Below are positions 1 through 52,329 of a stretch of DNA of 52,329 nt, piece after piece. A program made the translations under genes and the position numbers. The notes beneath the pieces are model-generated. The model was not told where the DNA came from and did no database searches. It saw only the letters and a list, made by a program, of their open reading frames with translations. Within the stretch, counting starts at the first letter, position 1. Each line of letters opens with the position of its first letter. The stretch is from Escherichia phage Mangalitsa, in the sequence record NC_048799.1. One strand, 5' to 3'.

Positions 1-131
1 TTAAAATACGGTCCCTACCTCAACTTTTTCCTAGAGCCTATCGGCTTTCAATCAACACCAAGTTAGGCGCTTCGCTTATGAGTCAAGGTCAAAGGCAATC
101 AGAGCACGCTGTTGTAATGTGCTAGTCTCAC

Positions 132-150
132 CATTAGTTGGTTGTGATTA
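132..150 (+). promoter_or_regulatory. phage-RNAP-type promoter, variant class (CATTAGTTGGTTGTGATTA), upstream of the RNAP gene
   Basis: Member of a 10-copy motif family with core CATTAGT; closest match is the copy at 26372 upstream of terminase. Confidence 0.5.
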
Positions 151-210: not shown

Positions 211-2325
211 ATGACTAACGAAGAATACCGTGCACTGGCTGCTGATGGCGCTCGCTTGAAAGAAGAAGGCCAAGGTTGGAAAGACGTGCTCGATACGATG
301 GACCGTTGCAACCAGATGGTAGATGAAATCACCTCCGCTACACAATCCGAAACTAAAACCGAAACTAAATTGGAGACTCGCAAAATGACAACTATCTCAA
401 CTCAAACTATCAAATCCGTTGTCCCTGCTATCACTGCCCTGGTATACCGTGCTAAAGAGAAACAGAATTACATGCAGCCTCAGACCTGTGCTATTGCTGC
501 TCTTGCAATCTTTAAGATGATGACCTCATTCACTCGTGATGATGTTGTTCCTGCAATGTCAATGGTTGAACTGGCTTCTGCTTCTATTGCTGATGCCAAC
601 CGTTACAACAACGACCTGAAAGCAATGCACTATGTTGACCCGGCTATCAACCTCATTGGTCTGGCTAAACACTTTGGCTTCATCACCATGAACGAAGACA
701 AGTCGTTCCAACAAACTGATGCATGGGTTGAGCTGGTTACTACCAAAGATACCTCAGTTCCATTTACTGAGCGTGTTACCACTGAATCTCGTCGCAAGCC
801 TTTCGTTAAAGGTGGCAAAGTTAAGCCATCCAAGACTCTGAAAGCTGCAATCGAATTCCTGCAAGATACTGAGTACCATGTGGAGACTGAGATGGTTCGC
901 GTCATCCAGTCTATGATTGAACAACGTACCTACGGTGGTTTGCAGGTGCCAGAAGCAATCCAGACTGAACTCCATGTTTGGAACAATGCTGTAGCAATGA
1001 TGACTCAGGACACTCTGTTCTCTGACTACTTTGCTGATAACCGTGGTCGTCTGTATCATGTAGCATGTGCTGGTCCTAACCCACAATCATCTGACTTTGC
1101 TCGTTGCTTGTATTCTCACAATGTTGAGAACATCGTTAAGAAGTTTAACGAAGATGGTTCTACTACCATTGCATACAACATGTTCATGGCAGAGCTGGAA
1201 GATATTTCCGGTGGTGAATGGTGTACTGCTAAGCGTTTAACTTATGTTGCTCAGAATCCAGCTGGTTCACTTGCTCGCATGATGAACATGGACAAATCTG
1301 AACGTCCTTCTAAGCCATTCACTTATGTTCGATTGGCTCTGGATTGGTTCAAGTTTGAGACTACAGGTGAGTGTGATTCTCGAGTAGGCTTTGGCTTAGA
1401 TGCTAAATGTTCTGGTACTCAATATCTGGCATTCATTGCTGGTAACATGGAGATGGCTCGTGCAACAGGTCTGGTTGATTCTGAGACTAAAGCATCTGAC
1501 CCATACCAGTTGAGTCTCCGTGAACTGTTGAAGCTACTGGATAAGTCTTCAATGAAACCATCTCCTGAAATTATGGATGAATTCTTGAATCCGAAAGCTG
1601 GTCGTAAGTTTATCAAAACTCCATACATGGCTATCCAATATGGTGGTGGTAAAGCTGCGTTAACTGGTTCTTCTGACTTTATCTCCTACATGACTGCATC
1701 TCTACAGATTCCAGTTGAGAAAGCAGAAGCATTTGCTGAACTGTGTGTGGAAGCAATCCATAACGCATTGGGTGCTAAGATTAACATGTTCATTGAGAAA
1801 GCTGCTGAAGCTGCATATAACCGTTGTGTTGAACTCAACAAAGAGTACATCACCTATAAGCACACTGATGGCCAAGTTGTAATGAAGCCTTGCTTCCCAT
1901 CTCGTGAAATCTGTGATGCATTCAGCATTCGTGTTGATTCTCAAACTCGTGTTATCTTTGGTCAGATTCAGGAAGAGAAACCTTGGACCATTCGTGAGTC
2001 CAATCCAACTAAGGAAGAATTCAAACGTACCTTCGTTGTTAACTACATTCAAGGTATTGATGCTCTGGTTGCTCGTACTGTTGCAGTTAAGGCTAAAGAA
2101 GCTGGTCTTCGTGGCTTTACTCCAATCCATGATTGTTTCCGTTGCTGTTTGGCTGATGCTCCACGCATGATGGAAGTTATTCGTGCAGCATATGTTGAAA
2201 TCTTTGTAACCAACAATCAATTCGAGAATCTGTCTAAGCAACTTGGTGGCATCAAGATGTATCACGAGAACATCGTAACCGAAGAGCTTCTGATGAGCGA
2301 ACACGCTTACTACTTCTGTCAATAA
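211..2325 (+). CDS. single-subunit DNA-dependent RNA polymerase, T7-like but compact (704 aa)
   Basis: Palm motifs readable in the translation: motif A DAKCSGTQYLA, motif B KFIKTPYMAIQYGGG, motif C IHDCF; RBS GGAGA before the ATG. Confidence 0.85.
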   Translation: MTNEEYRALAADGARLKEEGQGWKDVLDTMDRCNQMVDEITSATQSETKTETKLETRKMTTISTQTIKSVVPAITALVYRAKEKQNYMQPQTCAIAALAIFKMMTSFTRDDVVPAMSMVELASASIADANRYNNDLKAMHYVDPAINLIGLAKHFGFITMNEDKSFQQTDAWVELVTTKDTSVPFTERVTTESRRKPFVKGGKVKPSKTLKAAIEFLQDTEYHVETEMVRVIQSMIEQRTYGGLQVPEAIQTELHVWNNAVAMMTQDTLFSDYFADNRGRLYHVACAGPNPQSSDFARCLYSHNVENIVKKFNEDGSTTIAYNMFMAELEDISGGEWCTAKRLTYVAQNPAGSLARMMNMDKSERPSKPFTYVRLALDWFKFETTGECDSRVGFGLDAKCSGTQYLAFIAGNMEMARATGLVDSETKASDPYQLSLRELLKLLDKSSMKPSPEIMDEFLNPKAGRKFIKTPYMAIQYGGGKAALTGSSDFISYMTASLQIPVEKAEAFAELCVEAIHNALGAKINMFIEKAAEAAYNRCVELNKEYITYKHTDGQVVMKPCFPSREICDAFSIRVDSQTRVIFGQIQEEKPWTIRESNPTKEEFKRTFVVNYIQGIDALVARTVAVKAKEAGLRGFTPIHDCFRCCLADAPRMMEVIRAAYVEIFVTNNQFENLSKQLGGIKMYHENIVTEELLMSEHAYYFCQ

Positions 2326-2598: not shown

Positions 2599-2620
2599 TT
2601 CAACTAATCTAAAGATGTAG

Positions 2621-2640
2621 CATTAGTTGCATGTGAATAA
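2621..2640 (+). promoter_or_regulatory. phage-RNAP-type promoter CATTAGTTGCATGTGAATAA
   Basis: Identical 20-mer recurs at 3749; family consensus CATTAGTTGR-ATGTGAA. Confidence 0.6.
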
Positions 2641-2660
2641 CAAACAATTTGGAGCATATC

Positions 2661-2825
2661 ATGTTCACAGTACATTACATAAACAAGAACTTATCCGAAG
2701 GTGTTTACAAGTGCGACACACTCAAAGAGGCAAGAGCGTTCGCCAGAAGCTTGAGAGAAGTAATATCTGTTGAAATCACAGATGGCGATAAAGAGTACGA
2801 TGTAGTTAAGCCTGAACTCCACTGA
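2661..2825 (+). CDS. hypothetical small protein (54 aa)
   Basis: ATG 21 nt after the promoter with GGAGCA RBS; below the 60-aa cutoff of the ORF track. Confidence 0.4.
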   Translation: MFTVHYINKNLSEGVYKCDTLKEARAFARSLREVISVEITDGDKEYDVVKPELH

Positions 2826-2838
2826 TTCCCAATATTCA

Positions 2839-2865
2839 GACAATATTGCTGCATGTAATATTGTC
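2839..2865. repeat. inverted repeat GACAATATT-N9-AATATTGTC
   Basis: Perfect 9-bp arms; belongs to the AATATTG..CAATATT family also at 3289, 3538 and the right end. Confidence 0.6.
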
Positions 2866-2876
2866 TCGATATTCGA

Positions 2877-2896
2877 CATTAGTTGGATGTGAAGTA
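2877..2896 (+). promoter_or_regulatory. phage-RNAP-type promoter CATTAGTTGGATGTGAAGTA
   Basis: Motif family member; the prefix GATATTCGACATTAGTTGG is shared with the copy at 10780. Confidence 0.55.
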
Positions 2897-3288
2897 ACAG
2901 AATACGGAGAAGTATTACTCACGTTGTTCGTGGGTTTCCGCATGTCATGTTGAAATCATTCTAGAAACATTTCAGCATGTCAACTAAACATACAGTGTTG
3001 TAATGATGTGGCAATCATTGAACTCCCTGTCTTTGGCCAGACAAAGTTCCAACAACCATGTGTGAAGTAGGATTATTATTCGAAACTGTTCTTCAACTAA
3101 GGCATGTTCACTTGTTTCAATATTGCTTCATCTCCTATTATCAAGGCCCACCCACAAGCCGGGAGATAACTTTGGCAAGACTGGAACTTTTGGACATGCT
3201 TCTTTCTTTCAATCAGAATTCGAAAGAAGAGAAGAGTCGGAGCAAAGTGGCATTACGAATCCCGTAGCCCGCCCCGATTTTGAGCAAC

Positions 3289-3306
3289 AAATATTGTGAC
3301 AATATT
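3289..3306. repeat. inverted-repeat 18-mer AATATTGTGACAATATTG, copy 1
   Basis: Exact duplicate at 3538..3555; imperfect palindrome. Confidence 0.65.
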
Positions 3307-3537
3307 GTCGCAGTATGGCATGTAAATATTGCTACAAATTGGCATGTTAGAATGTGGCAGAATTGTTAGAGGACTAATCACCTCGAAGATACAATTGTCT
3401 ACCAATCCGGCATGTTAATTTTGTAACAGTATTTGTGCCAAATTCGCATGTATTAGCTGTATCAGTATTAACCCAATATTCTTGCAACCCGCATGAATAC
3501 TGGCTTCCAGCCAAGCGAAGGCTTTATCATCGCATGT

Positions 3538-3555
3538 AATATTGTGACAATATTG
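3538..3555. repeat. inverted-repeat 18-mer AATATTGTGACAATATTG, copy 2
   Basis: Exact duplicate of 3289..3306. Confidence 0.65.
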
Positions 3556-3748
3556 GGATAAAACCCTTTATTTAATTAGTTTTATTATGCTGTACATGGT
3601 CGGTTTTCCGTACCTGCTGCGCCACTTCTTGATGTGCCAAATACATTCCAAGATAGGAGCAAACCTGTAATTAATGATGCATGTTTAGTTGTGACAAAAT
3701 TCGTCTATTTGGCAGATGAATTAGTTGCAATTAAGCATGTCCATTTAT

Positions 3749-3768
3749 CATTAGTTGCATGTGAATAA
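3749..3768 (+). promoter_or_regulatory. phage-RNAP-type promoter CATTAGTTGCATGTGAATAA, preceded by a partial copy at 3721..3734
   Basis: Identical to the 2621 copy; tandem partial motif TTAGTTGCAATTAA lies 28 nt upstream. Confidence 0.6.
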
Positions 3769-3869
3769 GACCAAATCTCTGTAAATTCTGCTGAAATTGT
3801 GTGGCAGATTTTAGAGAGATTATGTCTCCAAGCTAATCATTGTAGTTTTCGGCACTTCATGTGTCACAT

Positions 3870-3933
3870 ACTCCCTACAACTTTAAGGTGGATTGAGGTA
3901 AGACAAGACCTCCACAATCGTTCTGTAGGGAGT
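3870..3933 (+). other. structured 5' leader hairpin upstream of gene 3959
   Basis: 10-bp perfect long-range stem ACTCCCTACA / TGTAGGGAGT enclosing an inner GAGGT/ACCTC hairpin; sits between promoter 3749 and the RBS at 3948. Confidence 0.4.
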
Positions 3934-3958
3934 TTTCTTTTAACTTTGGAGAATAAAA

Positions 3959-51880: not shown

Positions 51881-51997
51881 TTGGTTACGGTGAAGGCTGA
51901 CGTTTGTCAGTTAATATGTGAGAAGAGATTCGATGCGTTAGCGTCGTTTCTCTTTGAGCTAGAATAAAACAAGTAAATTAAATATTTATTTATTCCC

Positions 51998-52014
51998 AAT
52001 ATTGCTACAATATT
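51998..52014. repeat. AATATTGCTACAATATT site (related copies at 3325 and 52184)
   Basis: Same family as the AATATTGTGACAATATT inverted repeats of the early intergenic region. Confidence 0.5.
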
Positions 52015-52056
52015 AAGAGTAATATTAGGAATGCGTAAAGTTCAAAACCAAATGGT

Positions 52057-52109
52057 ACATGGTCGGTCAACTGCACCTGCTTCAATCTTCGTTCATGGTC
52101 GGTCGACTG
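52057..52109. repeat. direct repeat ACATGGTCGGTC(A/G)ACTG, two copies 37 nt apart
   Basis: Copies at 52057..52073 and 52094..52109; a third partial copy ACATGGTCGGTT at 3594..3605. Confidence 0.5.
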
Positions 52110-52150
52110 TATCTCGCCGAAATTTGTTCGAACAGAAGTCCGACTATGAA

Positions 52151-52183
52151 ATAATTTTTTTTTTATAATTTTTTTTTATTTTT
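52151..52183. repeat. AT-rich tract with T10 and T9 homopolymer runs
   Basis: ATAATTTTTTTTTTATAATTTTTTTTTATTTT. Confidence 0.5.
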
Positions 52184-52204
52184 CAATATTGCTACAGAAT
52201 TAAT

Positions 52205-52260
52205 GAGACTAGAATTGTTACGATATTGGAGACTCGAATTTGTTCGATATTAACGAGACT
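52205..52260. repeat. three GAGACT-containing direct repeats with about 25-bp period
   Basis: GAGACT at 52205, 52229 and 52255 in similar contexts, followed by TGTGACAATATT at 52268. Confidence 0.4.
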
Positions 52261-52329
52261 CAATCTGTGACAATATTATAATTTTATTTTTGGGCCAGCG
52301 GGGAGGGGAAGCCCAACGTCCTATCGGAC

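Follow-up and report, generated by a model that had tools for sequence, protein, structure and literature searches.

The right-end non-coding segment of Escherichia phage Mangalitsa: a candidate early-transcription and packaging region beside the direct terminal repeat

The genome of Escherichia phage Mangalitsa (NC_048799.1; MN045229) was analyzed here as a single window of 52,329 nucleotides, the whole stretch of DNA in that record. Its last 449 bp (51881-52329) form a non-coding segment that lies after nrdB and upstream of the gene for a single-subunit RNA polymerase (RNAP). The explanation that we favor, tentatively and at a little less than an even chance, is that this segment serves both as a start region for early transcription by the host RNAP and as the upstream half of a packaging and cleavage signal. 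It would form a right-end control region that extends from the hairpin terminator of the late unit to a conserved palindrome where the left end of the terminal repeat is cut.

Position of the segment in the genome

The paper describing the Mangalitsa genome reports a 3,234-bp direct terminal repeat (DTR) and a sequence re-opened at the repeat with the RNAP gene as the first feature. Mangalitsa belongs to the Chaseviridae, the genomes of which are described in the ICTV profile as linear, terminally redundant and non-permuted with repeats of ∼3 kb. Because position 1 of the window is the left end of the 3.2-kb DTR, the unique part of the genome ends with the segment, directly before the right-hand copy of the repeat, and in virion DNA the segment is followed by a second copy of the RNAP operon. 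Inside the DTR, the early operon opens with the RNAP gene (211..2325, + strand), which is annotated as an RNA polymerase in relatives.

The initial annotation had placed the segment upstream of the RNAP promoter, provided that the genome is linear or was circularised in assembly, and the segment does lie upstream of the RNAP gene. The window ends indeed join: the sequence is continuous across them in all 18 aligned relatives, with 52329 running directly into 1 in GJ1, ST32, DE15 and 15 other records. Moreover, exactly this junction was closed by the Mangalitsa authors by PCR with primers corresponding to 51919-51941 and 215-236. Each primer has one perfect match in the genome; as printed, both lie on the minus strand, and thus one was probably given as its reverse complement. 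The possibility that the window is an internal fragment of a larger contig, named beforehand as the circumstance that would speak against the annotation, can be set aside since the window is the complete non-redundant genome. Together, the last 449 bp and the first 210 bp match ∼46 Chaseviridae phage records, mostly labelled Carltongylesvirus. The nearest whole-genome relatives of Mangalitsa are 90-93% identical to it, and phage TH53 (MT446419.1) is ∼82% identical.

Conserved and variable elements

The segment was mapped in an alignment across the junction, with the end of each genome joined to its start, that included Mangalitsa and the 18 relatives; all column counts given below refer to these 19 genomes. 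Conservation is block-wise. The conserved blocks display mean pairwise identities of 0.91-0.97, namely the terminator hairpin (51915-51960, 0.97), the palindrome region (51961-52030, 0.92), the first copy of CATGGTCGGTC (0.93), the CAATATTGCTACAGAATTAATGAGACT block (0.94) and the terminus block (52299-52329, 0.91). The corresponding value for the first 47 bp of the DTR is 0.94, which is also that of the 3' end of nrdB, used as a comparison. Values of 0.51-0.55 characterize the linker between the two 16-mer repeats (0.51) and the array of GAGACT units (0.55).

The first element is a terminator hairpin on the + strand (51918..51959), the inner stem of which, CGATGC-GTTA-GCGTCG (51931-51946), is followed by TTTCTCTTT. 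It folds with a predicted energy of -22.5 kcal/mol (z = -4.75), none of 200 shuffled sequences folds equally well, and 42 of 46 columns are invariant. It is an intrinsic terminator, located downstream of nrdB, with which the rightward late unit closes, and it lies just to the left of the coordinates given in the initial annotation. A smaller hairpin, CTGAC-GTTT-GTCAG (51897-51910), directly follows the nrdB stop codon and lies within an ∼30-bp stretch found in only some of the relatives.

Next is TTCCCAATATTGCTACAATATT (51994..52026), which contains the 17-bp palindrome AATATTGCTACAATATT, that is, AATATTG-CTA-CAATATT (51998-52014). Its AATATT hexamers begin at 51998, 52009 and 52021 with a spacing of 11-12 bp, and it encloses a sequence that resembles an extended -10 element, TGCTACAAT (52003-52011). 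The element is invariant in the 19 genomes, occurs as well in Sabourvirus-like and Loessnervirus-like genomes, and has a paralogous counterpart, TTCCCAATATT...CAATATTG, at 2826-2848. The palindromic sites of the initial annotation are present as described, with AATATTGCTACA at 51998 and 52185 and an inverted copy, TGTGACAATATT, at 52266-52277. The AATATTGYTACA family, with two or fewer mismatches allowed, has 34 matches in the genome against 12.1 expected, a count reached by none of 100 shuffles, and CAATATTG occurs nine times against 2.75 expected from Markov simulations.

Two 24-nt direct repeats on the + strand (52055..52114), with 83% identity and the core CATGGTCGGTC(A/G)ACTG, follow. The 16-mers had been noted before. 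They are found at 52058-52073 and 52094-52109, with a start-to-start spacing of 36 bp rather than the 37 bp first given, and the base that precedes the second copy is T rather than A. Among the relatives there are one or two copies, and conservation of the GTCGGTC core extends over three genera. In most genomes the first GTCGGTC copy is surrounded by a GGTACA-N12-TGTACC hairpin such that the motif lies in the loop; in phage Y2 the flanking sequences are GGAACA/TGTTCC, a single, suggestive double change. Insertions are seen in the junction alignment around 52073, 52110 and 52270, at sites that differ between relatives. One is an 18-bp insert, GTATCTCCTTCGGAGAAG, capable of forming a UUCG-type hairpin, which is located after the first 16-mer in DE15 and after the second in JL1, Bp7 and Bp10. 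The other is a 21-bp ATTGCTCACTTCGCTCGCTTT-like insert in Bp7, Bp10, TH37 and GJ1.

The T-tracts (52155..52183, + strand) read T10-ATAA-T9-A-T5 and enclose a TATAAT sequence at 52164-52169. The T10 and T9 runs originally reported are at 52155-52164 and 52169-52177, respectively, with an additional T5 at 52179-52183. Run lengths vary from 5 to 25 among the genomes. Directly adjacent, a second copy of CAATATTGCTACA is joined to the first GAGACT unit (together CAATATTGCTACAGAATTAATGAGACT, 52184..52210, + strand). Of the 27 columns in this block 24 are invariant, and it is paralogous to 3325-3369.

The three GAGACT units (52199..52277, + strand), each 24-26 bp in length, were likewise recovered, at 52199-52227, 52223-52251 and 52249-52277, with spacings of 24 and 26 bp. 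The units are 72-76% identical to the first one, and every unit terminates in TTGTnnCnATATT, the AATATYGNNACA motif in inverted form. The relatives carry two or three units by motif count, and ST32 has a partial extra duplication, CGAATTGTTA, in an array that is among the least conserved blocks. It is absent from 4HA13 and Y2, the latter of which carries GATTCG repeats instead. The 19-nt unit has two matches against 0.21 expected, and the bare hexamer GAGACT is not enriched in the whole genome (21 occurrences against 22.9 expected). GAGACT was also considered as a phage promoter or a ribosome-binding signal and rejected, since the hexamer shows no enrichment and the unit has no copy outside this locus. 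The repeats of the segment are homologous across the aligned relatives and thus not due to chance.

A more distant comparison included 4HA13, Y2 and two uncultivated contigs, one Sabourvirus-like and one Loessnervirus-like. Four elements survive in these genera: the 17-bp palindrome, the GTCGGTC motif, the T-runs with TATAAT, and the terminus block. The palindrome is present in 4HA13 and in both contigs, the region before the Y2 terminus has a single AATATTG copy (53767), and the Loessnervirus-like contig (L033), which is related to Y2, keeps the palindrome. T-runs enclosing TATAAT, as T(n)ATAAT(n), are found in Y2 and in both contigs, and 4HA13 has only a shorter T-rich stretch. One of ten matches in the viral collection, L034, was discarded as a chance match inside a gene.

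The terminus

The segment ends in a GC-rich block (52299..52329) in which 28 of 31 columns are invariant and which closes with the palindrome GTCC-TATC-GGAC (52318-52329). As judged from the ends of the deposited records, the left-end cleavage site lies in this block, and the DTR boundary is taken to coincide with the physical end of the genome. The left DTR ends are GGAC|TTAA in Mangalitsa and 4HA13, T|CGGAC in JL1 and CG|GAC in Y2. In all four records the left end thus falls within 5 nt, inside the invariant palindrome GTCC-TRTC-GGAC. The 4HA13 record starts with TTAAATACGG and ends with ...CCTATCGGAC, as does that of Mangalitsa, and its DTR is annotated from position 1. The JL1 and Y2 records hold both copies of their repeats (2,995 and 2,608 bp) and begin with CGGACTTAAAT and GACTTAATAATACGG, respectively. 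This agreement, along with the published 3,234-bp DTR, upholds the earlier suggestion of a terminal-repeat junction at the window end.

In the first 100 bp of the DTR (1..100), the junction block continues with its conserved downstream half, which contains tandem GGTCAA copies and a second CCTATCGG (37-44). The two occurrences of CCTATCGG in the genome, at 52320 and 37, lie on either side of the cut. As a terminus-flanking motif, GGTCRAC is not enriched (14 against 8.9), and a local alignment of the two DTR boundary contexts gave a borderline score of 28 compared to a maximum of 27 for shuffled sequences.

Within 3200-3245, the right DTR boundary, at 3234, is preceded by a hairpin, CTTCTTTCTTTC...GAAAGAAGAGAAG. 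In JL1 the sequence TCGGAC is found at both DTR boundaries (cctaTCGGACtt and gaagTCGGACaa); the Mangalitsa right boundary reads TCGGAG. The boundary is straddled by ∼1.3 kb with little credible coding (2600-3958), which holds most of the CAATATTG palindromes of the genome (2841, 3118, 3300 and 3548) and three CATTAGTTG motifs. Between 2505 and 3757 there are 14 + strand copies of GCATGT, and Y2 has a comparable cluster of AATATTG and GCATGT.

Promoter-like sites

Candidate promoters were scored with a home-made position weight matrix (PWM) for sigma70, calibrated on the genome and on shuffled sequences. The candidate in the segment (52250..52282, + strand) consists of a -35 element TTAACG, an 18-bp spacer and a -10 element TATTAT (52274-52279). 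A TATAAT sequence (52277-52282) overlaps the -10 element, and the predicted start is ∼40 nt before the DTR boundary. The site agrees with the consensus at 9 of 12 positions and is the sole + strand site in a consensus scan, a count no higher than that in shuffles. It is homologous (52250-52279) to TTGACG-18-TATTAT, annotated in GJ1 as a "putative host sigma70 promoter". The corresponding site ranks first among the PWM candidates in 12 of the 19 genomes. It lies upstream of the RNAP gene, and its position is conserved, with the -10 box lying 54-58 nt from the terminus in 11 of these 12. In the remaining genome, that of MLP1, which carries an insertion adjacent to the terminus, the distance is 102 nt. 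In GJ1-type genomes the site scores 11.9, as compared to 11.3 for the best site anywhere in Mangalitsa. Between 1 and 210 there is no sigma70-like site on the + strand. Host early promoters in the segment, as the initial annotation had put forward, are thus weakly supported: the site is homologous to the annotated GJ1 promoter, but its score is weak and there is no enrichment. Of the published descriptions, those of ST32 and 4HA13 do not discuss promoters, that of MLP1 mentions them only in connection with a prediction tool in its methods, and those of Tiny and flopper contain nothing on the right-end region. A literature search for the motif string returned unrelated papers only.

A different type of promoter-like motif, CATTAGTTG, occurs in ten exact copies, all on the + strand, at 132, 2621, 2877, 3749, 6851, 10592, 10780, 12765, 21010 and 40891. 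Nearly all of these are in gaps just upstream of open reading frames (ORFs). Allowing one mismatch raises the number to 31, compared to an expectation of 17.3, and 27 of these 31 are on the + strand. The core, ATTAGTTG, is also found in GJ1, ST32 and a Sabourvirus-like contig, apparently at corresponding positions where the stretches overlap, and all copies are on the + strand except one in the contig. The extended consensus, aCATTAGTTGgATGTGAA, is like the upstream half of the SP6 and K11 promoters, and we regard CATTAGTTG as a candidate phage-RNAP promoter. No copy is present in 51881-52329, and the segment therefore lacks a T7-type phage-RNAP promoter by this measure. The stretch from the left genome end to the RNAP gene contains no promoter-like element other than the copy at 132..148 (+ strand), CATTAGTTGGTTGTGAT. 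According to the ICTV profile, chasevirus promoters have not been identified, and a motif that is strand-specific and mostly intergenic bears on that statement.

The early operon is closed by a clean intrinsic terminator, GGGAGC-TTCG-GCTCCC followed by TTTTCTTGTT (2574-2589). In the Mangalitsa paper one terminator only was counted for the genome. Note that the RNAP ORF contains 704 codons, compared to 648 in GJ1, with an extra in-frame N-terminal stretch of 58 codons (211-384), after which there are a second strong ribosome-binding site and an ATG at 385 (TTGGAGACTCGCAAAATG). In 4HA13 the equivalent of the extra stretch is a separate small gene.

A proposed role for the segment

In the virion or in a concatemer, the segment is the only DNA located upstream of an RNAP early operon, either that of the right-hand DTR copy or that of the next genome unit, and the RNAP gene would be the target of transcription that begins in it. 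We propose that the host RNAP starts at the TTAACG-18-TATTAT/TATAAT candidate, 56 nt before the boundary, with the TATAAT inside the T-tracts and the TGCTACAAT element as possible further starts. The transcript would cross from unique DNA into the DTR, continue through the RNAP gene and the next small gene, and stop at the early terminator. The left-hand RNAP copy has only 210 bp upstream of it, and these carry the phage-type motif; it may thus be expressed only after RNAP has been made, in which case the two copies would be used asymmetrically. The 17-bp palindrome, the GTCGGTC hairpin motif, the T-tracts and the terminus block with its two CCTATCGG copies would compose the upstream half of the packaging and cleavage signal, to which terminase or a regulator may bind, and the T-tracts would likely act as a bend or as an easily melted stretch. 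The GAGACT units appear to be a genus-specific expansion, variable in copy number, of a promoter-proximal module rather than iterons.

Several observations count against this proposal. The best promoter-like site in the segment has a PWM score of 8.2, which is at the 99.9th percentile for the genome (8.22), and sigma70-like sites are not enriched genome-wide (68 with a score of at least 8, as compared to 77.5 in shuffles), nor does the matrix single out any one site. Flopper, JL1 and 2KOFFS have TATTAA in place of the -10 box, and in Bp7, Bp10 and TH37 a 21-bp insertion separates the -35 and -10 elements. Motifs rich in AATATT yield -10-like matches by themselves, and hence promoter and operator readings are inseparable by sequence. 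To our knowledge, there is no protein that binds any of the motifs in the segment. Finally, the ends of the 2,339-bp DTR of phage PYps23T (MW147598), which were derived experimentally by restriction digests and ligation PCR, lie elsewhere, at ATTAGTTGGA motifs. That repeat starts right after one ATTAGTTGGA and ends with CATTAGTTGGA (record positions 1, 2329-2339, 52521-52531 and 54859-54869), and thus both ends are at copies of the promoter-like motif. The discrepancy with the ends reported for Mangalitsa, 4HA13, JL1 and Y2 may be genuine, or ligation PCR performed across a repeated 10-mer may have produced an artefact.

Alternative explanations

The segment might instead be purely a packaging signal, in which the repeated motifs upstream of the cut would be bound by the small subunit of terminase or by a helper protein, the T-tracts would supply a bend and no transcription would start. 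We consider this unlikely on the sequence evidence, even though the cut site is at the end of the segment, CCTATCGG occurs on both sides of the cut, the palindrome, GTCGGTC motif and T-tracts are retained across genera together with the same terminus block, and a second AATATTG cluster straddles the right DTR boundary. The two boundary contexts align barely above shuffles, the cluster is reduced to one copy before the Y2 terminus (though L033 keeps the palindrome), and the RNAP gene needs some host promoter upstream, for which the first 210 bp offer no candidate. Rather more doubtful is a model in which the AATATTG-N3-CAATATT palindromes and their half-sites in the GAGACT units are operators, through which a dimeric regulator of phage or host origin would either shut down or activate early transcription by the host RNAP on each side of the early operon. 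The distribution of the motifs accords with such a role: there are 17-bp palindromes at 51998, 3290 and 3538, near-palindromes at 2831 and 4112, the enrichment given above, and clusters at 51998-52277 and 2842-3701, which flank the operon. The motifs also overlap every promoter-like -10 box in the segment, but because AATATT resembles TATAAT this argument is partly circular. Furthermore, no candidate DNA-binding protein was found; the two small early proteins match only PHROGs of unknown function.

An origin of replication, which the initial annotation had entertained, is in our view improbable. Here the repeats would be iterons beside an AT-rich unwinding element and the GTC motifs would be start sites for a primase like T7 gp4. 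Indeed, the T-tract region has a GC content of 17-23% and is adjoined by direct repeats, the phage encodes a primase/helicase homologous to T7 gp4, the TGGTC within CATGGTCGGTC matches a T7 primase recognition sequence, and the minimum of the cumulative GC skew is at the window junction. The skew is uninformative, however, in that it is monotonic and explained equally well by one-directional transcription. The GAGACT units are among the least conserved parts, number two or three, and are absent from the other genera. By analogy with T7 the primary origin would lie downstream of the RNAP gene, where phage-type motifs cluster (2621, 2877 and 3749). An iteron-type origin in particular was rejected: an AT-rich stretch is present, but the units are only 72-76% alike and variable in number, and there is no adjacent initiator gene.

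The initial annotation had also stated that the segment carries no ORF. This holds for ORFs of at least 60 amino acids; shorter ones of 45 (52031..52168, + strand), 31 (52059-52154, + strand, MVGQL..., in a different frame from the 45-codon ORF that it overlaps) and 28 amino acids (51881-51967) do exist. A small protein gene, or a small or leader RNA, transcribed from TGCTACAAT and ending at the T-runs, seems to us a poor prospect. In its favor, the 31-codon frame is open in all 15 of the Carltongylesvirus genomes examined, the larger insertions and deletions within it are multiples of three (18, 36 and 18 bp), several relatives annotate small hypothetical proteins at the same place, and for a leader RNA there are one-sided, G-U-compatible changes in a possible stem. 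Opposed to this, in roughly half of the genomes a 1-bp insertion or deletion puts the upstream ATG into another frame, there is no Shine-Dalgarno sequence at the usual distance, and the frame is broken or without a start in UViG_47563, 4HA13 and Y2, where the GTCGGTC motif persists in the DNA. A PHROG search with four small ORFs produced no match, and the 31-codon ORF is probably not a conserved gene. As for RNA, an Rfam scan with E values of up to 10 gave sub-threshold noise (best match 18 bits versus a threshold of 50), a single-sequence fold of 52010-52185 was not significant (z = -1.4), an alignment fold of 16 sequences resulted in a consensus of -7.4 kcal/mol with no compensatory pairs, and a tRNA scan found none.

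Comparison with known systems

It is standard for T7-like phages, and for others with a DTR, to have a non-coding control region beside the terminal repeat. The Mangalitsa genome has already been published, and a putative promoter has been annotated at the homologous GJ1 site since 2008. What is provided here is a base-level map of the conserved and variable parts near a Chaseviridae DTR boundary, the agreement of four records on a cut site within one small palindrome, and an asymmetry open to test, in that of the two RNAP copies the right-hand one alone has DNA upstream of it. In the boldest form of the proposal, which we think unlikely to hold, the palindrome, the GTCGGTC hairpin, the T-tract/TATAAT element and the CCTATCGG pair around GTCC-TATC-GGAC would represent the first defined long-terminal-repeat and packaging signal of a chasevirus. 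With the sole host promoter outside the repeat, infection would then begin with the right-hand RNAP operon alone, and the left-hand copy would wait for the phage RNAP.

The direct homologue of the segment is found in GJ1 (EF460875, 1-441), where the putative promoter is annotated at 364-393. The GJ1 and flopper homologues are 81-87% identical to the segment, and in flopper (MN850594) repeat_region features cover the T-tracts and the GAGACT units; the annotations in both records are putative. Mangalitsa differs from GJ1 in its weaker -35 element, TTAACG, and in its second GAGACT unit (TTGGAGACT).

Terminase recognition regions include pacL-pacC-pacR of SPP1 and cosB of lambda. As in these, short repeated motifs in Mangalitsa flank a cleavage site beside A/T-tracts able to bend DNA. 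There is no sequence similarity, however, binding is putative here, and the product is a long exact DTR rather than headful-packaged DNA or cohesive ends.

Mangalitsa encodes T7-like enzymes for replication and transcription, including a gp4 homologue (primase/helicase, phrog_239) and a T7-like RNAP, and thus the right end of T7 is a reasonable model. The right end, or concatemer junction, of T7 and T3 contains the phiOR promoter, the SRR short-repeat array, pacB and the terminal-repeat boundary. Like it, the segment is a non-coding stretch after the last gene and directly before the terminal repeat, with arrays of short direct repeats and a promoter, here putative, that reads across the junction. 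In contrast to the 160-bp repeat of T7, the DTR of Mangalitsa is 3.2 kb and includes the RNAP operon; in addition, the segment lacks CATTAGTTG, the repeat sequences are unrelated, and the virion is that of a myovirus.

The early genes of T7 are served by the host promoters A1-A3, and those of T5 and SPO1 are carried in long terminal repeats. In Mangalitsa, as in these phages, the first genes need the host RNAP, the early genes are in or near the terminal repeat, and a terminator closes the early unit. Unlike the early promoters of T7 and T5, no site in the segment approaches the sigma70 consensus, and the putative promoter is located outside the repeat, where it would serve one copy of the operon and not the other.

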